Positions 20,311 through 64,000 of a stretch of 64,000 nt of DNA are shown here, piece after piece. This stretch comes from Euglena gracilis (Eukaryota): positions 16,634,140 to 16,698,139 of the forward strand of contig CP154954.1 in the NCBI GenBank assembly GCA_039621445.1, in the 5' to 3' direction. The notes under the pieces were generated by a model. The model saw only the letters and a list, made by a program, of their open reading frames with translations, was not told where the DNA came from and searched no databases. Position 1 is the first letter of the stretch. Each line of letters opens with the position of its first letter. Made by a program: the position numbers and the translations under genes.

Positions 20311-22617
20311 AATTTGATTGGGGAGGCTTTGTTTTTATTTTTTTTTGTAAGGTCTTTTTATCTATTTTGTTTTATTATTTATTATTTATTATTATTATTT
20401 TATTTATTATTATTTATTATTATTTATTATTATTATTTATTATTTATTTTTTCTTATTAATTAATTTTTCTTTTCTTTCTCTTTTGTCGGGAATCCTCCG
20501 CTTTTGCTTGGGTTTGATAATCTCCTTTTTTTTGTTTTTGTCTTACCTTATTTTCTCCCTTTCTTTCTCCTTTCCTCCATCTATTTTTAACCAAACCATT
20601 TTCAGTGTTCGCAAAACCAGGGTCTGTGTTAGAATTCAGGCTCAGGCAACCATACCCTGACTTCTAGCTAAGGAATTTACACATTCACCACACCCCCAAT
20701 TTCTTGGACCTTCGATCTCAGCTTTTTCGACATCAACTAAGCAAGGTGCTTCCAGCTTACCTGTTTGCATTCAGGAGCTGACCCGATTCCTCCACTCCTC
20801 CTTTTGGGACGCCCCTGCCCCAGGCCGCCTCTGTGGCGGTAGCACCCCCGCCCAGTACCCAAGCCCCTATCGGCAGCCTCAACAACATATATGCAGCTAG
20901 AGCCACCTCGTCCTCCTCAGGCACCTGCCATTGCAGGAACAGCTGCACCTGCTGCCGCTGACCTCACGACTGCCTCTGATAGGTAGAGACTGGCAATCAT
21001 ATCACCACCCCCAACCTCCAGATTCTCCCAGCACGAAACATCTCCTAATACGAGACAATTTATACCATTTTCTTTGTATCCTATGGGGTGATTCTGGTGT
21101 TCTATGCTCCGTTTTCACTTATTGAGGGAGGGCTCCACCCCCTGCAATCCCGGCATTAAACCCGAATTGCCCTTGCCTGTTTTCAGTATGCAAGAGATGT
21201 AGTATTACGCTTTATCCAGTCTCCACCATTTCTGATATTGTGGCAGTCCGGATGTATCAATTGGTTGGCCTGGATCTTGTGATGGTGAATGAAACATTTC
21301 ATCATCATCTTGGTTTTGTGGGGGATGTGACGCCAATGGCTACTTGTCGGGGCTACTGGTACACCACCATACCAGACGCCCTTGGGTTTATTTAGCTGGT
21401 GCAACCCATACCATCAATTAGTCATCGGCAGATGCCCCAGGGGACTGGTGCTGTCCCCCCCCCCTTTTTTTCCTTGCTTCCCCCCCATTGCCGTTCTTTG
21501 CTTCTTGGCTTGATTTCTTTTCTAAAGAGGCCAACTGATGAGGCTTAGCCCATCCCCCTGACAATTTGCAAGACACCACCGAAGTGACCCGGCACAGATG
21601 GCGCCAAGAAAAAAGTGTTTTGAGTTTTCTTTTTCTTTGTTTAATCTCTTCACACTGGCCAGACTCCATGAGACCCCCATTAATTTTTCAAAACTGGAAA
21701 TTACACCCTTCTACCCCGAGGCCAGTAACAAATTGTATGGCGCGGACGCAGTCTTGGAGTTCCCCCTCCCCTCCGGAGCCGTTTTCCGAGTCACCTCCCG
21801 CCACCCAGACGGTACACCCATGTATTGCATCAACACCCGCCGCCCTGACGTTGCCCCCCCCCCCCAGCCAAGCGACCCCGCCTTCAACCCCCAGTGGTGC
21901 CCACCATCTCTCAGTCCCCACAGCCCCACTGCACCCAGTTCGGCACCCTCCCAGCGTTTCCATGGCAAGAACTCCTTAGTCGGCAGCAGGCTGAGGGACC
22001 TGCACCTCGTCGCGGCCGCTCCAGATCTCACCGTCCACTCCGTCACAAACGTCCAAATTCCGCAGGCCGACGCCCACCCTCCCCTCCCCGCGCACGGAAT
22101 CCCTCCTCACGAAGCAGTTCTGCGCTCTCGCCGCCAAGGAAGCCCTCCACGTCTCCCACGGTCGGCCCAACGTCAGCAACAGCCACCCCGTCCCCTGCTC
22201 TGCAGAGCGGTCCATGAGGGACGGGGAAGTTTGCACCTTTATTTAATTCTATTTTATTTTAGTTTCTTAAGGACTGCCCCTCCTTCGGGCCAAAATGCCG
22301 GCCAAGGGCCGGATTGGGATTGGAACGAAGTCGAAATTCAACAGGTCAAAAAATGCATCTTTAGATACATTGGGTGGATTGTCAACGGTTCAGGTTCAGA
22401 TGCTAGCAGTCAATTTTTCTCCCAGTTCTTGCCTTTCCGAACTTCCTTTATTTTTTCACTTTTATTATTTTTTTTTATTGTTGTTGTTGTTGTTGTCGTT
22501 ATTTTTAGTTTGCTTTTTTTTGTTTTCCTAAGGACCGCCCTGCCGCTTTCCAGTGGAGCTCCTGCAAGGGTGTGCCGGGAGCCCGCAAGGGCCCCCTATG
22601 CAGGGTGGTCCGCAAGG

Positions 22618-28600: not shown

Positions 28601-28900
28601 TACAGCCCCCAGGCTTTTTTTTTAACAGCCCCCAGGCTATTTTTTTTACAGCCCCCCACCTTTTTTACAGCCCCCAACCTTTTTTACCGCCCTCAGGCTA
28701 TTTTTTACAGCCCCCAGCCTTTTTTTACAGCCCCCATCCTTTTTTTTTCACAGCCCCCATCCTTTTTTTTCCACAGCCCCCAGCCTTTTTACAGCCCCCA
28801 GCTTTTTTCACAGCCCTCGGCCCTTTTTGCAGCCCTCAACCCCTTTTTTTTTTATACAGCGCAGGCTTTTTTACAGCCTCCGGCCTTTTTTACAGCCCTC
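22618..28900. repeat. ~6.3-kb minisatellite, unit ~17-18 bp (TTTTTTACAGCCCCCAGCC)
   Basis: Hundreds of tandem variant units. It explains the long FTAP/LQPP/FYSP pseudo-ORFs. Confidence 0.98.
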
Positions 28901-30399
28901 AGGGGCCCTGATCTGGTCTGCTCTCTCAAACACATCGCACTCCCTTCTTGGTCTTTTTCTTGACCCATCTTCACACTTTCTTCTCTCGCTTTTCCTCTCA
29001 TCCGACATCATCAGCCATTATTTACGGATTTTTATCGAGCCAACCTGTGGGCTTGTGCTGGTTTTGAATGGAGTGAGAGAGGTTCTTAATCACATGGGAT
29101 AGTTGTTCCCTCCTATTTAGAGCCACCCTGCCCCTGTGACTACCACAGCAACTCCCCCGTGGAGTGGAGTGCCCGGCTGCCTTATTGAAGTGGCGGTGCT
29201 CCTTGTACAGCCCTTCCCCCACTATCTGTCAGCCCGGCACAACCTCTCCCGCATCCTGCAGCTCACCATCCTCTCGGTTGCAGCCGTCAGCCAAATCTCC
29301 AGAGCTCCCCCCCCCCCCTGACACTACCCACGGTGTACTGGGACGCCCCGTCTGCCTGGCATGCTCCCAAATCCTCCCTGGGGCTCAGGCAGAATCTTTC
29401 ATGTTATATTTTTTTTAACTACTCTCTTGTTCCTGTCCTTCAGATTCAAATAATACACAAGCCGGTGAATGTCTGGGATCCTCAAATATGGTGTTCCAAT
29501 TGTGCCAGACAATGGTGCCATGGTTTGCTCACAGGTGGGCACACTGCGGTGGTGTTATTCTTGTTCTACTGTTTTTTTTAACTGTTCCTGTTTTTTTTTT
29601 TTAACCAGCACATAATAACAATTTAAAATCAGGCATATATACACCCCGGAAAGAGAACATGTAATTTTATTGGGAGCACTGTCGGTCTTGCTCTCAGGGC
29701 GCCTCGTCGCCAATAGCCCCCAGGCCATAGGCAGGCCATAGTCCTGGGTCTGCTGGTTTTCCCCACAACTACTGGCACCTCTTCTCGACCAACCCCCCTC
29801 CCCCACGGTGTTTTTTCGTCCCAGTGCTTTGCTGAGCCGCAAATTGGTCACCTGGACCACGCCATTTTAGGTTGGGGGTCCTGCCACCTGCCTTTACGTC
29901 AAATCCTAGGCAAGACGGTTATGGATTTTTGGGTGCCAAATCAGGGGCAAATGGGTTGGGCAATTCTTTGGTCAAAAAGGATTCTTTTTTGCAATTGGCA
30001 GTTTCATGAGCATTTACAGTAAGGGACTCCGTCTTGTCTCTCTTATGACACTCAGGACTCCCCCTTCCGTTTCAAGGGACGGCAAAAAGAGCTGAATAGG
30101 GAACTGATGATAGTCAAAATATCGAAAGTCGGCACAATACTTATTATTACAGGTGATGATTCAGGAAGCTGCAACTAGGGAGAATTTTTTGACTTTTTTT
30201 TCTGTGTATTTCTCGTCGATATGCCCTGGCAGGCCCAACTGGGTGTCCCTGCCCTGGCCTTGCCGGATCAATCCCCTCCCCCCCTTTCTGTCCTCCCGGA
30301 GAGGCTCAAAGGTTGGTCTGCAGCGGCACTTTCCAATAGGTAAGCACACTATTGTAGTATATAAGGGGAGGGGGGTGCCGTGTGTCCTGGGGAGTTCAG

Positions 30400-31015: not shown

Positions 31016-31418
31016 AAAACTCTAGCTTGATAGTCCCCTCTTCGGTGGGGGGAAGTCGGCCGGGCTGCAGCCTGCTAGTAACCACCGACGATGGAAGCCA
31101 CTTATTTTCCTCTTCTTTTTCTGATCTACTCCTCTGTCTATAATCTCTATCTCTATCTATAAATATATTATTGCTGTTTTTTTGTTTTTCATTTTTGTTT
31201 TTGTTGGACCGGCGGCTGTGGGATCCCCACCCCTGCCCATTGCCCCAGCCCGCCCGCCCGCCTGCCCGCCCGAGCGCTGGCCGCATCACCCGCAAAATAA
31301 CACCTAATAATAGGGGGGGCTGAGGGTACATGGCCCGGTCACGGTCGTGGATATCATGCATATGATACCACCTGCGGCCAGCGTATTCCATGAATACGAA
31401 CGTGACTTTGAACTCAAC

Positions 31419-31425
31419 TCAACTC

Positions 31426-31503
<78 letters not shown>

Positions 31504-32246
31504 GATTGGTGTGGATGGGAAGTGTGTGGTGCGGGTGTGTCGGAGGTGGAGGGGGCTGCTTTGTTTTCATTCCAGGAGGTGCTCTGGGTGGTGACGGCAG
31601 GGCGTCCCCCGCCTGGCCTCCGACACAGCGAAACCGGGGGTGCCGGCTCACTACGCTGCGTCATCACTGGCCCACCACCACGGCCCCCGGTGTCCTCCTG
31701 GAAGGAAAGCTGCCGCTGCTGCTGGCGCTGCTGCTGCTGCTGCTGCTGCTGCTGTCGCTGTTGCTGCTGCTGCTCCTGCTGCTGCCTGCGGGAGTTGGTT
31801 TGGGTCGTTTTGTCGGGTTTGCGGCTTTGCCGGTCCCTTGGGGGGTAGGAGGCTCCTCCCGTGGTTGTTGAACCCTCCCCCCTCCCGCTGGGGCTGGGTT
31901 GCTGCTGCTGCTGCCTTCGGCTGCGGCGGCTTTGGAGCACATCCCATTGGTTGGGGTGTGCGGGGATCGGAGGGGGGCCTGCCCGGTTTGCCCCATTCTC
32001 TCCCCTGGTGCTCCTTTGGTTGGCTGGGGGCACCGACTCCCCCCGACAGTGGCGTTCTTCAAAATTTTCCTTCATTTGTTGGACTTCTCGGGTCAGTGCA
32101 GCGATGGTCTCTGCCATTCGCTTCAGCTGCTTATGCACGGCTGCCCCTCGCCTGCCGTACACAGGGGTCCACTCGGCACCCTCTTCCTCTCTTAAGCCTT
32201 GGGTGCCCTGCACACTCTCAGGGCGGGAGGGTCTGAAAAATCTCAT
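31419..32246 (-). CDS. ORF1/gag-like N-terminal region (coiled coil, polyQ), disrupted by (GA)n
   Basis: EWTPVYGRR, coiled coil KQLKRMAETIAALTREVQQMKE and WDVLQSRRSRR are typical of LINE ORF1 N-termini. It lies upstream of the APE remnant. Confidence 0.45.
31427..31498. repeat. (CT)n microsatellite; further (CT)n tracts at 34049-34113 and 34702-34780
   Basis: Visible tandem repeats. Confidence 0.95.
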
Positions 32247-32303
32247 GGCGGCGGGGTTTTCTGTCTCCCCAGGGCGGTGCCCACGGGTCGCTTCCCTATT
32301 GGG

Positions 32304-33941
32304 TCACCAAGGGGCTTGGGGCCGGGGCAAATCCCGCTTTGCGAACTCCCCTGCGGAACGGGTTGGCGGGACACAGGCACCACGCTGCCTGCCGCCCGCC
32401 TGGACATTGTGCTGTCTCGCTCCGGGAGCGTGGGGCCCGGAGTGGTTGTTAGATGGCTGCCCTGGGGGTTTGCCTTCCGGGTGGTGGTGTCGAGGACCAG
32501 GGTGGTCGGCCTCCCCGATCCTGGCGCCTTCGTGCCAGTCGTGCGACAGGTGTTCCTGGGCAGTGCTGCTGGCCATGTGGCTGGCTGCTGCTTCGTCTAG
32601 CCATTGCTGGATGGCCTCCCTCCGTTGTGGCCCACAGCAGGCCCAGACTTGGCTTTGCAGCTCGTGGTCCCAAGAAAAGAATATTGCCTTCCCTCGGCCT
32701 GGGTGCCTGCGCCTCATTGCTGACTTCCATTCCTCGTACTTCTCCCTCCACTCTTTCGGCCACTCGCTCAAAATGGTGTACTTGCGCTTCTTGGAGGGGG
32801 CTTGTGACGACGAGTCATCCTCTTCTTGTTCTTCTTCTTCGGCGAGGAATGCTTGTGGTGGGGGGGCAGGCAGCATGAGACGATTGGCAGCCTCGATGGC
32901 TGGGATGGCTAGGGCCTCGATGAGGCCTGTGGGTGCCGGGCCGTTGATGAGTGCATTGACTTGCACGTTTTGCACCAGGGCCGGGGGTTGTCCCTGTTGG
33001 TGGCTGGGGAGGTAGATGGGAATTGGGACCCGCACCTCGACTGGCACCGGCACCCGAACCTCCACGGGCACCTGCACTGGGACCTGCACGAGGCGCTCCA
33101 CGATGCGATCCACGAAGACCGGCTCCCGGACCGGAACAGGTACCTGCCTCTCCACGATCACCGGTCGATCCACCAGGACCACCCGTTCCTGGTAGACCTC
33201 GCGGATGGCTGGCACCGGTGGAGCTGTTGTGGAGGTCTGGTCTGCCTCAGCATGGTGCTGGGAGGATGCACCATCGTGGATGGCCGGGGAGTCTTCCACT
33301 GGCGGTGGTGGGGGTGGGAGAGGCTCCAGGACAGGGGTAGGGATTGAAAGATCTAGAAAAGCCGGCGATCGACAGGCCAGCCTGGGCGGGGAAGCCGGGA
33401 GAGACACTGAGGCGTCCCCCAGTGTGGAGTCAGGCTGGCCTCGGTCCCTTCCCACCTCCCACAAGAGGGCTCGGTCACCGTCACCCCCCTGGACGTCTCC
33501 AGCATGCAGGTTGGCGGATGTACCAGGCGGTATCGGGACCGCGGCTGACATCGCCGGTTGGGGAGAGGAGGATTGTATTGGAGGCGGGGACATTCCCGGA
33601 GGGGCTGCAGCAGAAACAGCAGCCTGGCCGACAGCCTCAACGCCCCGAGGGGGAGCCCCCGGGGTGGAAGCAGGCCGGTGTTCGTTGGGCAAATGTGCGG
33701 CGCCCCTGGGTGGATGTGCTCGCGCAGAACCCTCTCCTTTGCCTTGCCCTGGAGCCTCTGGTGGTGGGTGGATGTGTGCGTGCTTGGGCACCCGCTGCTT
33801 TCCGTGTCGCACGTGGGCCGCGTGGTCGACCTCCATCACGTCAGAGTCTGACCCCGCTCTCGGTGAAGCTGGGGGAGTCATTTCCGCCAGGAGGTCGTCA
33901 ATGCCTTCTGTGGGCGCGGGTGCGGCGGGATGTCCAAACAC
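32304..33941 (-). CDS. Hypothetical Pro-rich protein with VPV repeats, acidic patch and NLS-like PSKKRKY (element-borne)
   Basis: 545-codon open frame with protein-like composition and a small Trp-rich globular segment (EWPKEWREKYEEWK...FFSWDHELQSQVW). Confidence 0.5.
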   Translation of the reverse strand: MFGHPAAPAPTEGIDDLLAEMTPPASPRAGSDSDVMEVDHAAHVRHGKQRVPKHAHIHPPPEAPGQGKGEGSARAHPPRGAAHLPNEHRPASTPGAPPRGVEAVGQAAVSAAAPPGMSPPPIQSSSPQPAMSAAVPIPPGTSANLHAGDVQGGDGDRALLWEVGRDRGQPDSTLGDASVSLPASPPRLACRSPAFLDLSIPTPVLEPLPPPPPPVEDSPAIHDGASSQHHAEADQTSTTAPPVPAIREVYQERVVLVDRPVIVERQVPVPVREPVFVDRIVERLVQVPVQVPVEVRVPVPVEVRVPIPIYLPSHQQGQPPALVQNVQVNALINGPAPTGLIEALAIPAIEAANRLMLPAPPPQAFLAEEEEQEEDDSSSQAPSKKRKYTILSEWPKEWREKYEEWKSAMRRRHPGRGKAIFFSWDHELQSQVWACCGPQRREAIQQWLDEAAASHMASSTAQEHLSHDWHEGARIGEADHPGPRHHHPEGKPPGQPSNNHSGPHAPGARQHNVQAGGRQRGACVPPTRSAGEFAKRDLPRPQAPW

Positions 33942-34047
33942 AGCGAGTAAATCCTCCGTTGAGGGAGCATGTGCTTGGTCCAGCGGTATGGCGGTGGCCC
34001 ACGGGGCAGGCGGCGCGCGGTTTGGGCCGCTGAGAAGCCACCTCCAG

Positions 34048-34117
<70 letters not shown>

Positions 34118-34698
34118 GAATCGGTGTTGCTGGGGGAACTCCTTGGGGGGAACTCCTTGCCGACCCGAGAGTGTGTGCTTGTGGGGGAAGTGTGTTGTCA
34201 GTCGGTGTGGGTGCGTGTGTTGTCAGTCTGTGTTGCGGTTTCGCCCCAGGCTGGCAGGTGGGGCATCGTCAGGGGTGACGACCCTGCCAACCCTCGTCCC
34301 CGACCGCTCTTGTCTGTGTGGCGCAGACCGTTACAAACGAGCTCTGCGTCACCCTCCCGGGGGTGGGGGAGGGGGGGGTGAAAAAAACCGGCCCCAAGAA
34401 CAAGGCAGCGCGGGACGGAAAAATGGTCCACTACCTACGGGGCACCCTCCGGGACAGCACCCTTTTGGGAGGGCGAGACAAGGCCCTTTCGGTGTGGAAA
34501 GAGGCAAAAATTGCCGAAAAATACGGACGGCACCCGAAGGCTTGGGGCGCGAGTACCCAAATTAAGCCGCCGGTCCTGGGGTCGCAGCACCAACCCCTGG
34601 GGGAGGGGGTGGCCTGAGCCGCCGGTTGCTCAGCAGAACTGCCGCGTGTTTAGCCCACAAAATGGGGCGCTGGGGGCGAGGCATGGGGGTGCGAAACA

Positions 34699-53290: not shown

Positions 53291-53965
53291 TAGTAAACCT
53301 ATCCTATAACCCCCCCACGTATACCCCCCCCCTGGGCCCGACCACCAAAGCGTGACTATAATCTCTAATAATAATAATAATTAATATACATATCCCCCCC
53401 CCTAGAGGGAAAAGTGGCTAAGACTTAGGCGGCGTAAATTGCCCATGACAAAATTGACTGAAGTGGCACCCGGAACAGTAGAAAAATGCTCCAAAAAACA
53501 GCCAAAATTTTCGAGTTGTGCATCAGGACAGAAATTTTTCAGCGTTATTGCGTATGTAACAGACGAAGCGGAAAACCGCTTCGATAATTTCTGAAATTTA
53601 TTTTTAGTAGATTCACAGGTAAATACGAATAGTAAACCTATCCTATAACCCCCCCACGTATACCCCCCCCTGGGCCCGACCACCAAAGCGTGACTATAAT
53701 CTCTAATAATAATAATAATTAATATACATATCCCCCCCCTAGAGGGAAAAGTGGCTAAAACTTAGGCGGCGTAAATTGCCCATGAAAAAATTGACTGAAG
53801 TGGCACCCGGAACAGTAGAAAAATGCTCCAAAAAACAGCCAAAATTTTCGAGTTGTGCATCAGGACAGAAATTTTTCAGCGTTATTGCGTATGTAACAGA
53901 CGAAGCGGAAAACCGCTTCGATAATTTCTGAAATTTATTTTTAGTAGATTCACAGGTAAATACGA
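53291..53965. repeat. Tandem duplication of ~338 bp at the left end of element 2
   Basis: 53291-53628 and 53630-53965 are nearly identical, and each contains one GAAGCGGAAAACCGCTTC. Confidence 0.95.
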
Positions 53966-56194
53966 CGCAGCAAAAAGGTTGCAGAAAACCTACCACAATC
54001 GACACACAACGAATGATGTCATCTGTCAAGCAGACACACAGAGACAGAAAAATAATATATACATAGCAAATACCTGCGAGCAACTAACGAATCAGTATAA
54101 CAAGGAAATTTAAGTAAAATGCCGAATGAAGCGGAATACCTCTTCATCGACACCCAGAGTCGTGATATTACATTAAGTGCAACTGAATCAGAGGTAACAG
54201 GAATACATGTACAATTATGCTGTACAGGATAAAAAGGAGGAGAGACCACGTTGCACCTTTGTGATCAACTCGACCTGACACCGACGTTGGCCACCGTCGG
54301 TGTCGGTTGTTCCTGTGGGCTGCCGGGGCCGCAAGCGGCGGAAGCAGGCACCTGGCAGCCCCGTGGCTCCCCGCCTTGCACTGCCAGAGACAGACTGGTT
54401 TTAGGCCTAAACAGAATGAAAAACTAACATTTGAGGTTTGTGGTGCACTTGGCAGTTTGGTGGTTGTGTAGTGCGCGGAACAAATGCGTAGGTCCATGAG
54501 AAGCAGATAATGAATACAAAGCAAGCGGTTTTCCGCTTCCTTTGCACGTAATGGACACAATTTCACAAAAAGGGGAGAGGCTGGACCGGGTCCAATTCAC
54601 TTCCCCGTACCCCTGAACGGTGCCCAGCCGTCAGGGGTTCAGTTACGGCTTTTGCTGGACCAGGCAGGCGAGCGTACAGTCCAGGCTCCCCGTTCATCGC
54701 AGTACATACGCGTTACGTAGTGTACGATGAATCTTGCGCATTGCACTTTGTGGTTCAGTCAAACGTTAAACGGTTAACAACATCGCGCATCGCATTGCAA
54801 TGCGGACGAACGCACTCAGAATACAACGACAGAATGAACATGAAGCGGTTTTCCGCTTCTTTTTAATAAGATGAGCAATATGCTTAATGTCCATCGCGAG
54901 GTGAGGTACATAACTGTTTACCGGTTGCATGTACCATGAACAGGACACCAATCGTCATCTTAGCATCCAAATTGAAGAACTAAGTTACAGTGGTGTACCG
55001 AAGTCAAGATTGGTCCACTGCAATTCGTTGTGCACGTATCTCCGCCTGTGCTACGACACTTGCGCTGAGTTCATCGAGTCCATGAGAAGTCCTCTGCAAA
55101 CATGACCTTGGCGGAGTTTTTATTATCAAAGTCAGGATGGAAGACAGTTTTATATGTCCAACAGATGAAAATGAAGCGGAAAACCGCTTCACCTACGCCT
55201 GAAATCGCGATGCCGTCTGTTCATACCGAGTGATGTGACCACAAAGTACTACATTGTCCAGACCCCATGCATTCAGGTAGTTTAACTGAATGTGCTCTTC
55301 GGGCTGCCGCTGGCAATGGCCAGCAAAGGCCGTATGTGGCGGGGACTGCCCACCCCTCCCACGTACTGTCTGTGGTTCCCTACCAGTGACAGCCTCCTTT
55401 TTTGCTTTTACTGGAGGCAGCGGGAATCCACTTCATACGTGTGGGTAGCGACTGTGATCACCCAGGCAGTCGGGTTCATCAGTGCAGATTGGACTCAATT
55501 TGCTGGACGATGTTTACTTTCTGGTGCAGTGCTAAGTCACATTGGTATGGACAGCTGAAGAAAGACGTGAGGTCAGTGTATATACCGAGATCAAGATACT
55601 ACATACGCCTGTGATGTTGTGATTAGTTGGTTAGTCCGCAGGGCAGGGTAGTGACTGTGATCACGGCAGGCAGTCAAGCAAATGTGGGTAGTGACTGTGA
55701 TCACCCAGGCGGTTGTACCAAAAAAAACATGCATTAATTTAAAATGAGACAGAATAGGAAGCGTTTTTCCGCTTCCTGAAAAAATGGAAGAAAAAATACG
55801 TAAATCCAACCCTACGTTTCTGAATCGCGAGGTTTCTAACCGACGTAAAATGGCAGTTGTACCACCAACCACATCAATTCACCATAAGTTCCTAGGTACT
55901 CGTGTTTTGGGAAGGATTTTACCTGACATCGCGCTCTGGATGCGCCCATTTTGAGAGACCAACGTCCTGTTGCACCCCCCGTTTCAAAATAAGAATACCC
56001 TTACCAAACAGCACCCCAAAAACAGCACTACCGTCCAAATGAAGCGGAAAACCGCTTCATAAATGAAACTATAAGCTATTTAACAAACAGTTCTGAGTTT
56101 AATGTGTTATAAACACCAGATTGCCAAGAGGAAGCGGTTATCCGCTTCCTTTTCTGTCAGTATATCCGTATCTGCCCATTGAAACAGAGAACAC

Positions 56195-58927
56195 ATGCCC
56201 GCTGTTGCATCGCCTGTCCAATTGGTCCTGAACATTCGGGGCCTTCGCGCCTATTTGCAACATGGCAGGCCTCGTTCGGGATGGGACCTATTTTACGATG
56301 CTTTCGTAGCTCGTCAAGTAGGTGCCCAAGCAATTGTTTCACTGTGCTGCATGGTGCGGCTGAATCGACGTTCACGTCGCACAGTGGAAGCGGTGCGGGA
56401 GGCCTACATGCGGTCTTCGTCTCACCGTCCACGTTGGCTGGGACAGCTCGCCACTGGGGCGTATGCTGTGTGGCGTACGCTGCATCGACATCGACATCGA
56501 CATCGGCATCGACAGGCACAACCCCTTGCAGACCCCAGTACAGTGGCCGAGAACAATCCCAGCATGCGGGCACTGCAGCAGCTTCCGAGGGCAATGCGGA
56601 GAACTCTACGGCACACTGGCATGGTGGGTTGTACGGAGGTGCCGGTTGCAGCCCGGGCAGCAGTGGCGGAGCGGGACATCCTGGCCTCCCTGCGGAACCA
56701 CCAGGTTGTCCTCTGGCTGGACAACTTCTGCTGGCTATGCTGGGGAACGGACCCGGCCACCCCAAACCTGAGCCAGAACCTCACTGCTTTTGGAACAGTG
56801 CAGGGTATAAATCATACTGATGTGTGCATGATTCAATGAATCACTGGTTGGATCCTGAAGCAGTTAAGAATTAAACGACTTTCGGTGAATGGTAATGAAG
56901 CGGAAAACCGCTTCATTAATACTCAATATGTTTGCATGGTTGTTTGTGGTTCAACTGTAACAAGTAAATGATTCAGAAGCATGGTAACACCCGTACTTTG
57001 CACTGATGACGCTTTCTGCAGCTGGAGAACCTGTTGCACCGACAGGGGACGAGGACACGTTCCTTGACCTTCCCGGTGTCTCCAGGACACCCAGAGCTGA
57101 GCGACCTGATTGGCAACTTGGAGGTGGTGGCGTCCTCCTGTTGTACCGCATCGTTGCTGCTGCACCAAGCCGTGGGTCGCATACAACGGATGCAGCTGAC
57201 GGAGACGAGTATCAGGGTGCCGCTGGATGTGGCGCGGACCGACATGCGGTCACTGCAGTGGCGTCCGCTGTCGCTGACCGAGCAGGTGGTGTTAGCCAAC
57301 CTGGACCTGCTGCTGGTGCTGCAGACGGCGAAGTCACTGCAGCACCTCACTCGTCGCCAAACGCCTCTCCTGGTGGATGAGAACATCCACTACCGGTGTA
57401 TGCGGCTGCTGTACTCTGCATCGGCATCGCGGTACTACGTGTCCCGCTATCTGGCCGAGGTCCCCCTGTTGTACGGCATCTGGCACGCGTACAAACACAC
57501 GGTGATCGTCGTGTACCGGGCGTTCTTCCCGGTGCTGGCCCACCTGGAGGTGTCCCCTGGTGACCACCACTTGACGTGCAGCCTGCGGAGCCACCGGAAA
57601 GTGCTGTACATGGAGAAGCTGTTTGCCAGCCTTCTGTTGTCCCGCGAGTCGGTCATGTCCCACTCTGAGTCGCGCATAGCACCAGGGAAGCGGTTTTCCG
57701 CTTGCTTGACGTTCACTGATGCAATTTCATGATGTATGTGACATGCTATCTGCGATTCAGTAGTCAACTGGCAACCAGAATGGGAGATTGGAGTCGCTCT
57801 GGGAGTACACGAGCTGAACAACAGCAGCAACTCCGGTCCTACCTGTACCAGCTGCTGCAAGGGCTGTGGAACATCCTGGTCTTCTATGCCCCGGCCTTGC
57901 TGCACCTGGGACATGAGGTCCGACAGTGTACCTGGAGTGGTAGACCCGAGGACGAGGTGAAGGGCACCACCGTGCTGCAGAAGTGCCTCCTGCTGATGTT
58001 GCACCTGGAGCGCCTGATGAGTCCCGGAAGGCCGCCGCCCTTGGAGTACCAGCGGACCATCTCCCTGGCCCTGCTGGGGTGGCAGGACTGGATGTCCCGG
58101 CTGCTGGGCTGCGTGTTCGTGGAGGAGGCTGGTGAGGCCATGCTGTCGAGGTTGTCCTCTGCCTGCAAGCGGAATCCCCACGTGACCAGCTTCGAGGGTA
58201 CGCTGCAGCTGTTCCTGAACCTCGGCGAGCCCTCCGGCAAGGCTCACCACAGCCGTGGCAGCCTCCGGAAGCAGCTCGTGCAGGAGATGGCACGTCGTGT
58301 TCGTGGCCTGCTTGGCAGCCCTGGTGACCGTCCATTTCCGAAGCGGGTGGACAGCACAACCGTACGGTGGCTGGTGGACCCAGAGACCTACCCCACCTGG
58401 ATGGCACCGGAACCTCCACCAACGCGGATGACCACTGAGCAGCTGCTGCCCGTCCTGCGACACTCCGTGCAGACGCTGGTCCGAGGACAGCGCCTCGCTG
58501 CAGACGTGGAGGAGTGGTTCAGGACCAACGTGGGCACTGTTGATCCAGATATTCTGCAAGAAAGAGAAGAGGCGATGTACCCCTTCCTCACGCGCAGAAG
58601 AAGCAGGGCTCCACAGCGGAACATCCTCTTCAGCGTCCAGATGAAGCGGAAAACCGCTTGCACGACACGGATGAAGCGGATACCTGCTTCGATGTCAACT
58701 CAGCTGAGATGGAGGTGGCAGAGGCCTCGATCGTGGTGGGTGACCAGGAGGAAGGCAGCAGTCTGTACGAGCCACCGGAGTCCCTCTACGAGCCGCCCGG
58801 TGACTTATCGGACGGCTACGTGTCCGTGGGGGCCTCCGACGGATTGGACTGGCTGGGCTCACTGCAAGGCAGTGATATATCCGATGCTTCATCGGACGTA
58901 TCCGTAGCAGTGGTGTGTAAATGCTGA
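56195..58927 (+). CDS. Putative Academ-like DDE transposase, paralog of 3708-6631; exons 56195-56792, 57011-57661 and 57766-58927, about 800 aa, with a probable 1-nt frameshift near 58595
   Basis: Two non-conventional introns give in-frame junctions (LTAF-G-FLQL; VMS-Q-LATR). Motifs: WLDN (D at 56720), IRVPLDV..WRP, LLVD (57376), LYGIWH (~57475) and FVEEAGEAMLSRL (~58122). The acidic tail (ORF 58658-58927) lies in another frame. Confidence 0.7.
56793..57010 (+). other. Non-conventional intron
   Basis: CAGTGCAGGGTA (56796) pairs with TACTTTGCACTG (ending 57005). CAG is at +4 and CTG at -8; the frame is preserved. Confidence 0.85.
57662..57765 (+). other. Non-conventional intron
   Basis: CTGAGTCGCGCATAGCA (57665) pairs with TGCTATCTGCGATTCAG (ending 57760). 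The +4/-6 register restores the frame. Confidence 0.8.
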
Positions 58928-59254
58928 TTGCTGTTTGTGGGAGATTTCTGTTGTATATACGGTATTTGGGACACGTTGGGTTCACACGCTGGCTATTACT
59001 AACTAATACATAAGCAAATATGGGCATACCGGACCATGACCACTACAGACAACAAGAAAAGGGATGCCTTTTTTAAACATGGTGCTGTTTGGTCCAGGTT
59101 GGCAGTGTAAAATGGAGAGTGTTTTGAAAACAACAAGCAAAATCAAAAAAAATAACCAATTTTGTTGGGTTTTATAAGTTCTTTTTGGGAAATAAATGAT
59201 GCAAATCCATTCAACTCAGCTTTATTTTCCACAGATTGGATGATTATGTACATA

Positions 59255-59277
59255 TTTTTCGATTTTTTTCTTCACAG
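59255..59277 (+). promoter_or_regulatory. Candidate spliced-leader trans-splicing acceptor (polypyrimidine-CAG); similar sites end at 56160 and 63927
   Basis: TTTTTCGATTTTTTTCTTCACAG lies 10 nt upstream of the ATG at 59288, with no obvious upstream exon. Confidence 0.5.
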
Positions 59278-59287
59278 ACCAGTACAC

Positions 59288-62200
59288 ATGCCTGCGAAGA
59301 AGCTGGCGAAGGCAGACACCACGGGACAGTCGATCCCGAAGCTGCTGGAAGACGAGGAGATGTGGCTGCAGAGGGAACAGGGTTAGATTTGTGGTTCCTT
59401 TTGGTGAATGAACATACATTCTTCAATGAAGCAAACATTCAGAAGCATTGACAGATAAAAAATCACTTTGGTCAACTAATGAAGCGGAAACACTCTTCAT
59501 TGCTGTGAATTGCATTATTTCTCCCACAAAAGAAATATATCTTAACTAACCCTGTAGTCGGGCAGCTGGTCCTGGACGTTGACCTGAGCCGGGGGCAGGT
59601 CCGGTGGCCCCGTCAGGAGCACGTGAACGACCTCATCACCGAGCTGAAGAACAATCCGCCGCAGGAGCTGGTGCTGACAGTGTGGCCGGAGAGAGGTGTC
59701 CACCAGCCCCCTCCATATTGTGTTTGTCGTTCCTGTGGATCAGACCCCCACACGTCAAGTTGGTTGTTTGCCGGAAGTGGGTTGGAACTTTGGACATGGG
59801 TTCTGTGTTTCTCTATTTCATCATATGGAAATCATCATGCGTTGTGTGGGGCAATGGATCGTTTCTGAATGTGTTCCCCTCTTCTCAGCTACGGGGAAGT
59901 GGGTCATCCTGAGTGGTCAACATCGTTTCCTGGCCGCGTCGGCCATCGCCGACGCCGCCATCGCCGATGCCCGGCGGCCGCCAGCCTTCACGGAGAAGTT
60001 CCGGTGCAAGGTGGTGAAGGAGAACACCAGCATCATCGAGCGCCAGCAGCTGGCCGGCAGGTTGCAGGCCATGGACGGCAACGTCATGGACATGACCCTG
60101 GCGGACCGCCTGCACTGGCTGCTGAAGGAGGACACCCACAACCGGGAGATTGCCGAGGCGGAAGGGGTGGCGTACAACCCCACCAAGGCGGAGCTGTTGA
60201 AGAACGTGTACAGCAAGACGGGATGCCGCGAGACCGTGGACGGTGCCCTATGTTCTGTCGCCTATGGATGATTGTGCAGCCCAGAATGACTATATGATAT
60301 TTGATGATTGATGGCATATTCAGTTTGTTGTCAGTTTGTTGTTGGTGGTTTTCAAATGCGATCGCAAAAGGAAGCGTTTTCCCGCTTCATTACCCTCCCG
60401 TTTTTAATTTTTAACCTTCTCAGGGTACGTGGGTCAAAGCCATGATCCCGGTCACGGAGTGGGTGCTGCAGAGTGGGACCGAGGCTGTGGAGGTGGTGAA
60501 GAGGATGGAGGCCCGTGGTGGGGACCGTGTGTCCCCACACACGTTCAAGTGCCTGGAGGCCATCTACCACCCGGACGACTACGCGGAGCTGGCCCAGGTG
60601 ATGTTGGACGAGAAGTCCAAGCCCACCACCCAGCGGCTGGTCCAGTCTCCACATTTTGCATTCCACATCTGGCGGATGGTTATAAATCCCGAAAATAAAG
60701 AGGGACTTTTCATCAACAACGCAGACAGGAAGCGTGTTTCCGCTTTGTACATAAACTTTTTTAATTTTTAATGTATAATTGTGTTCATAGTGTTCACCCA
60801 CTCATCCAAAATACAAAATGGAGTCTGCTGCCAGGCAGGAGACGGCGAAGCTGGTGCGCCGCAGGACCTGGACGTGGCTGCTGCAGCACCCGGAGCTGGA
60901 TGCCGACGTTCTTCACCCGACCAGAAGTGTGTGCTGTTTAATTATTTGCATTAATCATATGCATGCACGTCTAAGAACTGCTGGCTTTCTCCATTTTTGA
61001 TAACTGGTTCTTTACATGGATAAAATTCAGTCTGTATCATGAAGCGTTTTTCCGCTTCACTTTGCCAATTTGTGTTTTTTTTTGCAGAGGACCTGGCGCA
61101 GGTGGCCGCGCTGGAGACCGCCCTGCAGCCGGAGCACGTGAAGGTGCCGATGACCGGGGTGAAGTGGAGGTGGTCGCCCGAAGCCCCCTGTGCGGGGACC
61201 AACTTCTGATTTGTAAAAACAATTCTCGTTTCACAGCCTGGAGTGAATGCACCCCTCCCAGTGAATGCATGCACACCCCTCTCTGATGCGATGTCAGTTG
61301 TCCCCCGGCATTGGCCACCCGTCGAGGTAGTACGCCGCGCGCCGCTGTGGGCCGACCCCCTGTACGAGGGACTGAGGCAGCGGCTGCTGGGCCAGGTGAT
61401 GGAGCCCGTCGTCAAGATCGGGGGCGTCTTCGGCACCCTGGACCTGCACGGCATGAGCCTGCCTGGCCGTGGACCGTCAACGCCCGGCAAACCAAAGAAA
61501 CCGGAGGAGGAGGTGTCCAGCACCCAGGAGATCTCCACGCCGGGCCGGGCCTCGGCCAAGCGGGCCGCCCAGCCTGAGGTGCTGAAGACCGGCCTCATCC
61601 ACGTGGTGCCCATGCAGTCCACGGACAACGCCTGGCCGAAGGACCTCCGTCTGCTGGACCTGGCAGCTGTGGTGGTGGAGGTGGAGCCCCAGCAGTTCGC
61701 CGACAATGACAGCGTGCATACCGAGGTGTTCAGGCTCATGCTGACGGGGGTGCCCATGATCGCCGTCGGGAGGGACATCGACCTGCGAGATCTCCAAGCG
61801 CGGCTGACGAAGATGCTGGCCAGTGAGATGACCGTCTTCCGCAAGGACATCGTCCTCTTCATCCCGCAGTCGGGGCCCGACCCGGACTGGATCTGGGCGC
61901 GAAGGACCCTGTCTGTGATCACCACGAACAAGAAGACGATGAAGGTGCACCATCTATTTTATTTTATGATGAAGCGGAAAAGCGCTTCCTGTTAATGAGA
62001 GCAGTTCTTTTCTTTTCTTGTCTATGTCATAGTGAATGCATACATGTACATCGTACAAAACAGAAAATCCTTGTCCCTTCCCGTCGTAGGACCCCGGCCA
62101 GATCACCTTGCAGGGGATGCACCAGGTCCCGGATTGCACTTAGCATGCCAGTTAAGAATGTTGTCTTCAGTTTTCATACTTCAAGCATGAACTTGTGTCC

Positions 62201-63407
62201 CTGTTGTTGAGGGCAGTGTCAACCAACCTCGTTAGTTTTTGGCGATGTCTGTTTTGAAGTGCAACCCGGTGCACCTGACGTTGCCCATCTTGTTCCTGTG
62301 GAGGTCGTCTGGTGGTTCCTGCGGCGGCTGGAGGTGGCCACCACTGACTGGGTGATGGTGCTGAGTTCCCGACCGGTGCTGTCCGCCCAGCTGGCCGTGC
62401 GGGCGGGCAGCGCCATCAACCTGCTGTGGGGCGTGCCGGCCCTCCCCTCCGACGACGCAGAGGCCCAGCAGCACTGCCTGGAGGACATCGGCCGCGAAAT
62501 GAGGGTGGCCGACGGGCTACCGCCGTTGATCTGGGTGCAGGGTGGCCCAGGCTTCTGTCTCTTACTTTCACCGAACTTTAATTTCACATGGTTTGTCATT
62601 TAACGAATGCAAAAGGAAATCACCTGGTTCATTCTATGTCTTTTTTTCTGGATTTAACAATTGAAGCGTAAAACCGCTTCAAATTACTTTGCTTAAATTT
62701 TTTTTGCTGTTTTGTATCTGTATTCCAATTCCCTTCTGATTCCGGATAAAATAATTTCATTGGGTTGCCTTGTGGTCAAGGACGTCCACCTGAGGATCGT
62801 ACGCCACCTGGCCCTGAACGTGTCCGGGTACATCCCGGAGGGGACGGAGCCGGCCCCCGCACCACCGACGGAGGAGGAGCCCCCGTCCAAGCAGAGCGGC
62901 CGGGACCCGAAGGAGTCCAAGTCCAAGGAGACCAAGGAGTCCCAGGACAAGCCCAAGGAGAAGGAGACCAAGGACAAGCAGGACAAGAAGACCAAGGACA
63001 CGCCCAAGAAGGGCGCCCGGGGGAAGCAGTCCGCCTCCTCGCAGCAGCCGGCCCGGCACTCCTACGAGTCGTCCCCGGAACCGCCTGAGCGCCCGACACA
63101 CAGGGAACGGCCTAATGGTGGATTGTCTGTGATGATCGTATGTCCTGTTTCGATTTTGGCAGTAATTTCACAATTCTGTTTGATGAAGAGTTTTTCCGCT
63201 TCCTTATGATTAAAGTCAGAGTAATTTTCCTAAGATTGGAAGTGCGTTCACGTTCTACTATAAATTGGTTCCGCTGCGATGCAACACAATGGTATCTAAT
63301 CAAAACCGTTATCTGCGTTCCACGCCTCCCGTTTGCGCCGCTCCCTGTTGCCGAGGAAGCGGTCCGCCCTGGAGAACATCCAGGAGATGCTGGTGGACGA
63401 CGAGTGA
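59288..63407 (+). CDS. 11-exon gene, about 760 aa: N-terminal ParB/Srx-like domain, possible inactive beta-class amino-MTase domain, Lys/Glu-rich tail
   Basis: Exons: 59288-59374, 59560-59695, 59889-~60245, 60424-60639, 60833-60926, 61088-61189, 61313-61944, 62090-~62125, ~62274-62534, 62778-63097 and 63353-63407 (TGA). All are GC3-rich. Eight of ten junctions are frame-exact, by GT-AG or the +4/-6 pairing rule; introns 3 and 8 have uncertain ends. The spliced N-terminus contains VRWPRQEHVNDLITELKNNPPQELVLTVWPERATGKWVILSGQHRFLAASAI. Confidence 0.8.
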
Positions 63408-63950
63408 GCGGGCGGCTGCGGCGGCCGCGGTGGCAGCGGGCGGCTGGTGCCGCCAGCGAGGGAGGGACAAGCGAGACCCAGACCCAGACCGGACCAGACC
63501 CATACCCACACCCAGACCCAGTCCCCAATCATGCGCACACCTTCGCCACACCACACCCACCTATTTCGCTGTTTTCTTTCCTTTGTGTTTGCCTTTGGCA
63601 TGGCTGCGGAACTGGGGGCTGTGGGGTTTGCTCCAGCTGTGACCTTTGTTTTGAGAATCAAAGTTACAAACCCACAACTTGCTCGGTTTAGGTTCTTTTC
63701 TTCGTGATACAATGCATCTTCTCAATATTGTTTGATGCGGGATTCACGTTTGTTGGTTAGTTCAAGTTTGGCATATGTCATTACATTCAACATTCAGTTG
63801 GCTCAGTGATGTTGGCAATGTACTTAATTTGGGACCAGTACAATACAGTTTGTTTTGGACTTATTTCCTTCTCTCCGATTTGAGGAAGCGGAAAACCGCT
63901 TCATCGTTTTCATGATTGTTTTTGCAGGTTTTCCCTCCTACCCGCTTACG

Positions 63951-64000
63951 ATGGCCCAGTACCTCAAGTGCGGACTTTGACTACAGGTCTGTATCGTTCT
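63951..64000 (+). CDS. Possible first exon of a third element gene (MAQYL...)
   Basis: A palindrome at 63885 and a TTTTTGCAG acceptor (63927) precede ATGGCCCAGTACCTCAA and a GTGCGG donor-like sequence. Truncated by the window end. Confidence 0.25.

Follow-up and report, generated by a model that had tools for sequence, protein, structure and literature searches.

Does a 64,000-nucleotide stretch of Euglena gracilis DNA (positions 16,634,140 to 16,698,139 of contig CP154954.1; hereafter the window) encode a protein of the ParB/sulfiredoxin (Srx) fold that its open reading frames (ORFs) show only in fragments? A sequence-only reading had proposed that three exons between 59288 and 60245 encode such a domain. 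It had also held that eukaryotic ParB-fold proteins other than Srx are rare, which agrees with the portion of a 2025 survey of the ParB-CTPase fold used here, where Srx is the main eukaryotic representative and eukaryotic proteomes were searched with PF02195 at the gathering score (PMC12704722).

A gene of 10 or 11 exons

Removal of 59375-59559 and 59696-59888 joins three frames into a stop-free sequence, and the spliced product of exons 1-3 contains the peptide quoted in the sequence-only reading: GQVR, HVNDLITEL, PQELVLTVWPE, GKWVILSGQHRFLAA and FRCKVV. The proposed start is borne out by direct reading of the sequence, as the ATG occupies 59288-59290 on the + strand. No exon end is established at the proposed position 60245, since candidate donors lie at 60236, 60245 and 60251. 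The gene extends well beyond this region: positions 59288-63407 (+) of the window hold a gene of 10 or 11 exons and about 750 codons. Each of the 12 combinations of the remaining splice choices yields 738-760 codons that run uninterrupted to the stop at 63407. The features are as follows.

59288-59374, + strand: exon 1, from the ATG; its end is 59381 under a GT-AG alternative
59375-59559, + strand: intron 1, 185 nt, nonconventional, GAA-CAG ... CTG-TAGTC; the next exon begins with G
59560-59695, + strand: exon 2, with the first strand, GQVR loop, helix HVNDLITEL, NPP and strand LVLTVW of the ParB/Srx-like domain
59696-59888, + strand: intron 2, 193 nt, conventional, GTGTC ... C-rich tract ... 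CAG, phase 1
59889-60250, + strand: exon 3, candidate 3′ ends 60235, 60244 and 60250
60236-60423, + strand: intron 3, acceptor CAG 60421-60423 fixed by homology; candidate donors GT 60236, GC 60245 and TG 60251
60424-60639, + strand: exon 4, colinear with relatives P0002 and P0021
60640-60832, + strand: intron 4, 193 nt, nonconventional, GTC-CAG ... CTG-CTGCC; the next exon begins with A
60833-60926, + strand: exon 5, homologous to P0002 and P0021; GTGTG donor at 60927
60927-61087, + strand: intron 5, predicted by the model
61088-61189, + strand: exon 6, predicted by the model
61190-61297 or 61190-61312, + strand: intron 6, predicted by the model
after intron 6 to 61944, + strand: large exon, predicted by the model; 93% identical to relative P0102
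61945-62089, + strand: intron 7, predicted by the model; GT..AG joint seen in an RNA-type contig
62090-62125, + strand: possible mini-exon of 12 codons, then an intron to 62303, predicted by the model
62304-62534, + strand: exon, then an intron at 62535-62780, predicted by the model
62781-63097, + strand: K/E-rich exon, predicted by the model
63098-63352, + strand: last intron, nonconventional, ACA-CAG...CTG-TTGCC|G; 7 bp pairing
after 63352, + strand: last exon, predicted by the model; TGA stop at 63405-63407

Exon 3 encodes a strand (WVIL), a helix opening with SGQHR, then FRCKVVK, AGRLQA and a helical region ending KTGC...DG. An acceptor-like CAG 10 nt 5′ of the ATG may serve for the addition of a spliced leader. 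In a splice-graph search intron 1 was likewise nonconventional, but the borders that this search gave introns 3 and 4 were rejected by the homology test, and the search therefore carries no weight here.

Predicted nonconventional introns at lineage-specific positions

In the part of PMC12501133 used here, Euglena nonconventional introns have paired ends and follow the code 5′-N3CDG-/-CH′GN5-6|R. The unusual borders of intron 1 fit this code, as do those of intron 4 and the last intron (63098-63352). Intron 1 pairs over 10 bp, ACAGGGTTAG at 59377-59386 with its reverse complement CTAACCCTGT at 59546-59555, and both predicted structures, MFE and centroid, contain this terminal pairing. Between 59200 and 63500 there are 4459 candidates, and intron 1 is one of 6 distinct code-compliant pairs with at least 10 bp of pairing. 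These paired decamers, as well as the GT-AG ends of intron 2 (GTGTCC at 59696, CAG at 59886-59888, both read directly), are present as described in the sequence-only reading. Its further claim, that gene finders relying on GT-AG would miss the gene, does not necessarily hold: because an in-frame GT-AG alternative to intron 1 exists at 59382-59557, such programs need not lose the frame.

Comparison with relatives favors the nonconventional borders, which give better colinearity than GT-AG. With exon 1 ending at 59374, the N-terminal profile of the family runs ungapped into exon 2 and scores 39.0 bits, compared to 36.8 for the GT-AG end. Similarly, the nonconventional junction of intron 4 is ungapped, retains a conserved R and scores 98.6 and 96.7 bits against P0002 and P0021, while the GT-AG alternative is gapped and scores 92.4 and 90.5 bits against the same relatives.

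The two classes of intron are distributed differently across the family. Intron 1 is absent from four relatives that read through the same position (P0014, P0049, P0066 and P0085), and intron 4 is absent from P0002 and P0021. The position of intron 2 is kept family-wide, as relatives begin at the same point with intron-like read-through before it. In five relatives a single ORF holds the exon 2 part followed by the exon 3 part, interrupted precisely at intron 2 by read-through sequence; this segment has low pLDDT in both AlphaFold models described below. The conventional introns of the gene have GTGTG-type donors, and together with the three introns that obey the nonconventional code they point to a euglenid host. 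In this locus nonconventional introns occupy lineage-specific positions and conventional introns family-wide ones, which agrees with the pattern of new positions for the former and conserved positions for the latter in the portion of PMC6221363 used here. The locus is a clean worked example of how the nonconventional splicing code of Euglena recovers a protein.

RNA data from four runs were sparse. Raw reads numbered only 3 (X21) and 32 (X24), and since their identity was mostly 95-99%, they come from other copies. At this very low coverage, the four runs contained no joints at introns 1-6 or at the last intron. One contig of run X1 carries a GT..AG joint, 61944->62090 (printed as 61942->62088, a shift of +2); other listed joints, whose sides were short (20-30 nt) and whose ends were unlike those of introns, were left out. 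In X1, RNA-type depth was 0 over the intron 2 bin, while the bins on either side had 20.7 and 11.6; in X24 the intron 2 bin was likewise at 0. The intron 1 bin was as deep as its neighbors (23.1 versus 25.2 and 20.7 in X1; 0.67 versus 0.38 and 0.54 in X24).

A large family known from exon-sized ORFs

Among 1.84 billion representatives, the exon 3 peptide matched 99 proteins at E ≤1e-3, including 3 spurious repeat proteins, and 22 at E ≤1e-10. By BLASTP, the exon 2 peptide matched the N-terminal parts of P0014 (3e-10) and P0049 (9e-10). Exons 2 and 3 thus each have a homologous segment in these proteins, one segment following the other, and their peptides are 30-38% identical to these two relatives. 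When an N-terminal profile made from five relatives, with the window excluded, was run against all window ORFs of at least 30 amino acids, its sole match was the exon 2 frame (E 1.8e-11; the next had E 2). P0001 is 97% identical to the window sequence, and P0102, the one relative found for the large exon, is 93% identical. Protein searches that depend on shared words found no full-length relatives. Searches for genomic loci of the family with a reduced alignment gave 32 pattern matches in metagenome contigs and 13 in viral contigs, and none of either was confirmed. The family is large and diverse and is known solely as exon-sized unnamed ORFs from metagenome and read-archive assemblies.

These data bear on whether there is a gene at all. 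Chance open frames in GC-rich DNA would account for the lack of RNA joints at introns 1 and 2 and of any Pfam match. As judged from sequence, this explanation already fails because two exons, each tested independently, match adjoining segments of shared proteins. Since it also conflicts with the exon/intron contrast in RNA-type depth, the GT-AG joint and the high-confidence folds of two relatives, we consider it hardly credible.

Relatives are predicted to adopt a ParB/Srx fold

Exons 1-3 encode an N-terminal domain of ~190 residues, and its close relatives are predicted to fold as ParB/Srx domains. AlphaFold (AF2) models of P0014 (pLDDT 87.7, pTM 0.78) and P0049 (pLDDT 79.3, pTM 0.71) represent these relatives with the intron read through as an insert (pLDDT about 60 in the insert regions), rather than the spliced protein of the window. 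Along this fold the elements run from a strand through an Arg-bearing loop, a helix, two strands and a helix with Gly-x-His-Arg/Lys to a final strand.

Structure prediction had been proposed as a check, and it supports the fold. When the models were compared with 48,161 PDB chains using VIA-align, the best eight for each were all ParB/Srx-fold proteins. For P0014 these were PadC (Z 9.6, rmsd 2.9 over 98 residues), the pNOB8 ParB N-domain (Z 8.2, 150 aligned), KorB (Z 8.2), Arabidopsis Srx (Z 7.9), SerK (Z 7.7), Atu1540 (Z 7.2), SbnI (Z 7.1) and human Srx (Z 6.8), followed in ninth place by an unrelated chain at Z 5.2. The same eight proteins matched P0049 at Z 9.4-6.8. In a second structure comparison, M. 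xanthus ParB with CTPγS was best (Z 10.6, rmsd 2.4 Å over 95 residues) and B. subtilis ParB with CDP scored Z 10.2; the top 32 rows were all of the ParB/Srx fold, with a drop to Z 4.6 thereafter. Foldseek gave no PDB match at E ≤1e-3, though its named top rows all belonged to the ParB/Srx superfamily (best E 1.6e-3). In BFVD, 18 matches reached E ≤1e-3, the best of them (5.5e-6, about 200 columns) to a phage ParB/Spo0J. As a lead, feature similarity in the ESM Atlas pointed to ParB_N (0.93), DUF6551 (0.91) and DUF3723 (0.93).

Sequence profiles do not find this fold. The sequence-only reading had suggested a search with ParBc/DndB profiles, and its outcome in Pfam and NCBIfam was negative. Pfam gave no matches for four exon peptides of the window and no ParB-family matches at E ≤10 for seven relatives; PF02195 (ParB_N) matched 1 of 74 family members, at E 0.042. 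NCBIfam returned nothing relevant for P0014, P0049, P0085 and P0066, and hmmsearch of the PDB with 10-row and 74-row profiles found no ParB. Since the family fails the PF02195 profile, surveys based on it, such as PMC12704722 in the portion used here, would not detect this family. Its predicted fold is nonetheless closest to those of CTP-bound ParB, Noc, KorB and PadC, and it appears expanded to many copies in the host. Support for a ParB/Srx-fold domain across exons 1-3 thus comes from structure, through the models of relatives (Z up to 10.6), and not from profiles. On these models, we judge this to be a real, highly divergent eukaryotic ParB-fold family.

Several weaker candidates were set aside. 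S19e matched the 10-row PDB hmmsearch profile at E 0.0056, a match that weakened to E 0.69 with the 74-row profile. FA_desaturase matched an upstream frame at E 3.7e-4, below the cut-off, and the VMAP-M15 match to the large exon was weak and sub-threshold. Pfam found nothing relevant in neighboring ORFs, the ESM Atlas gave no usable match for an upstream exon and Rfam none in 52-64 kb of the window.

Likenesses and differences among ParB/Srx-fold systems

The N-terminal CTPase domains of ParB/Spo0J, Noc, KorB and PadC are the best matches overall (Z 10.6 to 8.3, rmsd 2.3-3.2 Å, 92-99 residues). The ParB N-domain has the same order of strands and helices as this family and shares with it a conserved Gly-x-x-basic motif that opens the second helix. 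The likeness extends beyond the core: the helical region of the family superposes on the region after the N-domain of ParB, KorB and pNOB8 ParB. The full superpositions on ParB-parS, KorB and pNOB8 ParB chains cover 125-157 residues, those on ParB-parS and KorB chains covering 125-132 (Z 8.8-8.5), and the match to phage ParB/Spo0J models spans about 200 columns. The longest overlap, 150-157 residues with Z 8.1-9.0, is with the N-domain and following helices of pNOB8-type archaeal ParB, which is 9-13% identical to the models of the family.

Unlike ParB, this gene is eukaryotic, intron-split and multi-copy, with ~750 residues and a long, unrelated C-terminal part. ParB has a ParA partner, a parS site and a C-terminal dimerization domain, of which no counterparts were identified at this locus; no profile match to an HTH or dimerization domain was obtained. 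pNOB8 ParB serves plasmid partition together with AspA and ParA, and neither partner was seen here.

The ESM resemblance to fungal DUF3723 (0.93 for two clusters) is a lead only. PF12520 (DUF3723) had no match at E ≤10 on seven relatives and is absent from the 25 families listed for the 74 members. DUF3723 is a conserved cargo gene of Starships, eukaryotic, linked to mobile elements and of unknown function, according to the part of PMC9156397 used here.

Conserved motifs suggest a nucleotide-binding domain

The N-domain of ParB has three phosphate-binding motifs, and its motif GERR (GERRxRA) carries a catalytic Glu. In Srx the equivalent motif is GCHR, with a catalytic Cys. Within the family alignment, the G and Q of the SGQHR motif are present in 74 of 74 sequences and the H in 73 of 74. 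The residue after this H is R or K in only 43 of 74, so that the Arg is not conserved. An A-G-x-x-Q motif occurs in 64-70 of 73 sequences. The family motif [SDA]GQH[RK] differs from canonical GERRxRA.

GQ[IV]R, [SDA]GQH[RK] and AG[RK]xQ[AS] appear to sit where ParB has its phosphate-binding motifs, a correspondence of places and not of residues aligned one by one. On this placement, the most probable ligand of the domain is a nucleoside triphosphate (CTP, ATP or GTP). The domain would then be a switch controlled by that nucleotide and working on DNA or chromatin, rather than a sulfinic-acid reductase. Because Gln stands for both the Glu of ParB and the Cys of Srx, hydrolysis may be slow or absent. 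If the domain binds NTP, the family would be a nuclear, intron-bearing, multi-copy branch of a fold thought to act on DNA mainly in prokaryotes and mobile elements, and would offer a concrete protein for testing CTP switching in a eukaryote.

Since Srx is eukaryotic, has the same fold (Z 6.8-8.0) and a motif of the G-x-H-R type, and is the commonest eukaryotic ParB-fold representative in the portion of PMC12704722 used here, we asked whether the gene could encode a divergent Srx. This is very unlikely. The position of the catalytic Cys is Gln in all 74 members, CTP-bound ParB chains match better, and Srx chains have 89-121 residues, while the gene model has 738-760 codons with a long extra region and belongs to a multi-copy, fast-diverging family.

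The label 'DGQHR/DndB-type' in the sequence-only reading is correct as to likeness of motif, since DndB/DGQHR-type proteins have [D]GQ[HQ]R, which [SD]GQH[RK] resembles. The label gains no support beyond that. Membership in the DndB/DGQHR branch or in that of DUF262 (GmrS, SspE), as a regulator linked to DNA modification or a restriction NTPase, would fit the shared ParB/Srx fold. The scores are far lower, however: Z 3.0 for DndB (9jfl_A, 139 aligned, rmsd 5.3) and Z 4.3 for SspE (6jiv_A), compared to 10.6, the value for CTP-bound ParB, to 8.3 for ParB, Noc, PadC and KorB. No DndB, DGQHR or DUF262 match was obtained in NCBIfam or Pfam (E ≤10; P0014, P0049, P0085 and P0066), none is among the 25 families listed for the 74 members, and the gene showed no recognizable partner domain of dnd, ssp or nuclease type. 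We regard membership in this branch as improbable.

A missing donor in one of many near-identical copies

The window copy departs from its relatives at the donor of intron 3. In the family alignment, V (GTN) directly follows DGxx in 63 of 63 relatives, and C follows V in 52 of 73. This 'VC' read-through after exon 3 matches the GTGTG donor consensus in the part of PMC11170887 used here. The window copy has TGT in place of the family GT donor. Its frame is open with each of the three candidate donors (60236, 60245 and 60251), and closes at TGA 60269-60271 if intron 3 is kept in the transcript. Because the conserved donor is missing, this copy may be impaired downstream of the ParB-fold domain.

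The source organism also has the gene region in numerous, nearly identical copies: on 4.7 kb, run X20 contributes 1499 aligned contigs and run X1 a further 114, mostly at 95-99% identity. Copy number and donor together raise the possibility that the window holds a decaying copy of a repeated, perhaps mobile element, so that the domain is real while the copy is a pseudogene or encodes a truncated protein of ~200 residues (TGA 60269-60271). Many variants at 95-99% identity, TGT where 63 of 63 relatives have GT, the unexplained palindrome throughout a 10.5-kb block (see below) and the frequent location of prokaryotic ParB-fold genes on mobile elements (PMC12704722, in the portion used here) all speak for this reading. 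Yet none of the 12 splice models meets a stop before the shared one at 63407, in-frame donors exist at 60236 (GT) and 60245 (GC), and 50 of the 114 X1 contigs and 626 of the 1499 X20 contigs match at 99% identity or more. Moreover, no transposase or recombinase was recognized in the neighbors, and multi-copy genes are no proof of mobility. Decay is thus a serious possibility, although we think it the less likely one. In our view, the data are probably best explained by a 10- or 11-exon gene with a predicted ParB/Srx-fold N-terminal domain, likely an NTP-dependent switch, that belongs to an expanded family; we hold this reading with considerable confidence.

A palindrome confined to the block around the gene

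An 18-nt palindrome, GAAGCGG-AAAA/TTTT-CCGCTTC, occurs in 21 copies and in both orientations, where 0.03 would be expected by chance. None of the 102 proteins compared contains a peptide translated from it. A speculative reading, which we think quite improbable, is that gene and palindrome form a eukaryotic pair resembling ParB and parS: the ParB-fold protein would recognize the palindrome, load as a nucleotide-dependent clamp and mark, silence, pair or partition amplified or mobile nuclear DNA. A ParB-type DNA clamp at work on eukaryotic nuclear DNA would, if this holds, be the first of its kind. The palindrome is restricted to the 10.5-kb block that holds the ParB-fold gene, where its sites lie in introns and spacers of three neighboring genes, and it is kept in the 93% identical paralogue.

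Exon borders and homologues of the ParB-like gene

Direct reading of the sequence bore out the coordinates that the sequence-only reading had given for the start codon, the paired ends of intron 1 and the borders of intron 2:

59288-59374, + strand: exon 1, beginning with ATG at 59288
59375-59559, + strand: intron 1, with ACAGGGTTAG at 59377-59386 and its reverse complement at 59546-59555
59560-59695, + strand: exon 2
59696-59888, + strand: intron 2, beginning GTGTCC at 59696 and ending CAG at 59888
from 59889, + strand: exon 3

When the two intervening stretches were removed, the three frames joined without a stop and the product contained every motif that had been quoted. The end proposed at 60245 is a candidate exon border, not a demonstrated one.

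We compared the 117-aa exon 3 peptide with 1.84 billion representative proteins. There were 99 matches at E ≤ 1e-3 (22 at ≤ 1e-10), the best at 4e-69 and 97% identity; three of these matches are to repeat proteins aligning solely with an Ala-rich stretch. Nearly all true matches are 100-300 aa long, and the relatives begin and end at the exon 3 borders, with intron-like read-through on both flanks. Ten whose records were checked derive from contigs no longer than 4.9 kb in JGI, ENA and Logan assemblies, and are unnamed or called "hypothetical protein". Five matches (P0014, P0049, P0066, P0085 and P0095) additionally contain an N-terminal part. Exon 2 of the window aligned with the N-terminal part of exon 3 relatives (BLASTP 3e-10 and 9e-10), and a profile of the five N-termini, built without the window, found the exon 2 frame as its sole match among window ORFs of at least 30 aa (E 1.8e-11). 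All five relatives with both parts have an unalignable insert precisely at the intron 2 position. On these grounds the ParB-like gene is real, and its exon 2 and exon 3 pieces belong together.

Fold of the N-terminal domain

Sequence profiles did not recover the ParB/Srx (sulfiredoxin) domain that had been proposed across the three exons at 59288-60245. Pfam gave nothing on four exon peptides and no ParB-family match on seven relatives at E ≤ 10; with 74 members compared singly, there was a single match each to ParB_N (E 0.042) and DUF6551 (E 0.14). NCBIfam profiles returned nothing relevant, and two profile searches of PDB sequences returned no ParB. Where profiles failed, structure searches with models of the relatives P0014 and P0049 agreed on the ParB/Srx fold. 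The P0014 model, built from a 74-row alignment, had pLDDT 87.7 and pTM 0.78, with its read-through insert at about 60; the P0049 model (pLDDT 79.3, pTM 0.71) had the same topology. In a Foldseek-independent search of 48,161 chains, the first eight rows were all of ParB/Srx fold for both models. For P0014 these were PadC (Z 9.6), pNOB8 ParB-N (8.2), KorB (8.2), Arabidopsis Srx (7.9), SerK (7.7), Atu1540 (7.2), SbnI (7.1) and human Srx (6.8), after which the score fell to 5.2; P0049 gave the same eight chains at Z 9.4 to 6.8, then 5.5.

Foldseek's own E-values against the PDB were modest (best 1.6e-3). Re-scoring of its list placed Myxococcus xanthus ParB with CTPgammaS first (Z 10.6, rmsd 2.4 over 95), with Bacillus subtilis ParB with CDP at Z 10.2, and all 32 top rows came from the superfamily. 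Among viral models, 18 rows passed 1e-3, led by phage ParB/Spo0J (5.5e-6 over ~200 columns). Since DndB (Z 3.0) and SspE (Z 4.3) scored far below the ParB chains in the same structural re-scoring, the label "DndB-type" attached earlier to this domain reflects its motif only. Clusters of ParB_N, DUF6551 and fungal DUF3723 came up at 0.91-0.94 in a feature search of the ESM Atlas, a similarity that we regard as a lead.

The ParB/Srx fold is already known. The family is not a known one: no profile detects it, and two protein searches found no full-length or named relative. A literature search, judged by titles, found no paper linking Euglena and ParB. A 2025 survey that names Srx as the main eukaryotic ParB-fold protein used PF02195 at its gathering score (PMC12704722).

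Conserved motifs and predicted function

In the GQH motif, G and Q are invariant among 74 aligned members, 73 of which have H; R or K comes next in only 43, and Ala follows the GQH[RK]-type motif in 71. A P...W...FRC motif is near-invariant (P 72/74, W 60/73, F 64/73, R 52/72, C 69/72), and A-G-[RK]-x-Q-[AS] is found in 64-70 of 73 members. GQ[IV]R is shared by the six N-terminal sequences, five of which have a downstream NPP. By their place in the fold, we take these three family motifs to be the counterparts of ParB's three phosphate-contacting motifs. Because of these positions, we infer that the N-terminal domain is most likely a nucleotide-binding switch. A family Gln stands at the place of the catalytic Glu of ParB and of the Cys of Srx, which argues against Srx chemistry and suggests that hydrolysis is slow or does not occur. 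Past the core, the helices superpose on the post-N-domain region of ParB-parS, KorB and pNOB8 ParB (125-157 aligned residues, Z 8.5-9.0), compatible with putative DNA binding.

Nonconventional and conventional introns

The introns of this gene point to a Euglena-like host. Euglena nonconventional introns have a genetically defined signature, given in PMC12501133 as 5'-N3CDG-/-CH'GN5-6|R. The earlier borders of intron 1 (GAA-CAG ... CTG-TAGTC, then G) match it. A second in-frame reading, GT-AG at 59382-59557, keeps three more residues. MFE and centroid folds alike pair the intron ends over 10 bp. Since six distinct pairs with at least 10 bp occur among 4459 code-compliant candidates in 59200-63500, end pairing by itself is not decisive. 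If the nonconventional junction is used, exons 1 and 2 align with the family profile in one gapless stretch (39.0 bits); with GT-AG, the alignment stops at exon 2 (36.8 bits). Two further introns fit the code:

60640-60832, + strand: intron 4, GTC-CAG ... CTG-CTGCC, then A; nonconventional code and homology
63098-63352, + strand: last intron; nonconventional code likewise fits

The nonconventional junction of intron 4 is gapless against the relatives P0002 and P0021, with a conserved Arg (98.6 and 96.7 bits), versus 92.4 and 90.5 bits and a gap as GT-AG; homology thus requires this intron.

The conventional introns have GTG-type donors, C-rich tracts and CAG ends, features described for E. gracilis (PMC11170887). 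The codon right after the exon 3 end is GTN in 63 of 63 relatives, with Cys next in 52 of 73, which is a GTGTG donor read through. Relatives span the intron 1 and intron 4 sites without those introns, and introns 2 and 3 are family-wide, in agreement with a published pattern in which nonconventional introns arise at new positions and conventional ones occupy conserved sites (PMC6221363).

RNA evidence and copy number

RNA support was sparse. Four of 24 listed runs were compared. Raw RNA reads on the gene region numbered 3 and 32 in two runs; since 32 of the 35 were 95-99% identical, they derive mostly from other copies. No splice joints at introns 1 to 6 were reported from the four runs. One contig of run X1 has a GT..AG joint 61944->62090 (with a +2 cut). 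Depth in X1 was 0 in the intron 2 bin versus 20.7 and 11.6 in adjoining bins, and low in the bins with introns 3, 4 and 5 (2.0, 4.3 and 5.5). The intron 1 bin resembled its neighbours (X1, 23.1 versus 25.2/20.7; X24, 0.67 versus 0.38/0.54), which does not confirm the junction and could reflect retention or later removal of nonconventional introns. Such later removal is reported in PMC6221363. The region is highly repeated, with 1499 X20 and 114 X1 contigs on 4.7 kb and summed word depths in thousands.

A further nonconventional-code candidate, 62058-62256 (9 bp end pairing), starts within conventional intron 7 (61945-62089), and the one RNA-type joint implies a 12-codon mini-exon, 62090-62125. 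Together, these suggest nested or alternative splicing.

State of this copy

The window has TGT at the position of the intron 3 GT, which 63 of 63 relatives possess. Either a different donor serves this copy, with in-frame candidates at 60236 (GT) and 60245 (GC), or the intron is retained. With retention, the protein would end at 60269-60271, just past the ParB-like region. A GCC(C)TATG string occurs twice at 60245-60268, 15 nt apart, exactly at the expected donor, which this copy may have lost through a small duplication or deletion. All 12 combinations of the alternative splice choices give 738-760 codons without an internal stop, ending at TGA 63405-63407. Beyond the N-terminal domain no recognised family was found; the large exon has a single relative, 93% identical, and another exon is Lys/Glu-rich.

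Palindrome and neighbourhood

An 18-nt palindrome, GAAGCGG-AAAA/TTTT-CCGCTTC, has 21 sites (≤ 3 mismatches) in both orientations at 53565-63902, against a chance expectation of 0.03. Every site falls within the final 10.5 kb, and positions 1-53500 have none. Three + strand genes carry the palindrome in their introns and spacers, seven introns of the ParB-like gene among them, and the read-through of P0102, a 93% paralogue, retains the palindrome with one change. The boldest reading, that the palindrome of the 53.5-64 kb block is the binding site of the ParB-fold protein, has a low probability.

53402-54083: two tandem copies of ~337 bp, each bearing the palindrome (spacing 337 nt), with near-identical minus-strand ORF translations
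54500-58920, + strand: upstream multi-exon gene with the same intron palindrome as the ParB-like gene; large open frames 56183-56836, 57010-57729 and 57720-58904, acidic C-terminal frame 58544-58924; neither a Pfam family above cut-off nor an ESM Atlas match
63880-64000, + strand: palindrome-bearing intron ending in TTTTGCAG at ~63928, then a short exon rich in GC, with a GT donor near 63988; apparent start of a third gene
3500-6600 and 31400-34300: very high GC content (0.64-0.74), with long open frames in either direction; nothing passing the Pfam cut-off, and a single weak TFIIA match (E 0.0037)
21500-29000: extremely asymmetric strands (lowest GC skew -0.54, lowest AT skew -0.38); + strand frames free of stops for as many as 1031 codons, without a Pfam match; resembles low-complexity or repeat DNA more than a gene
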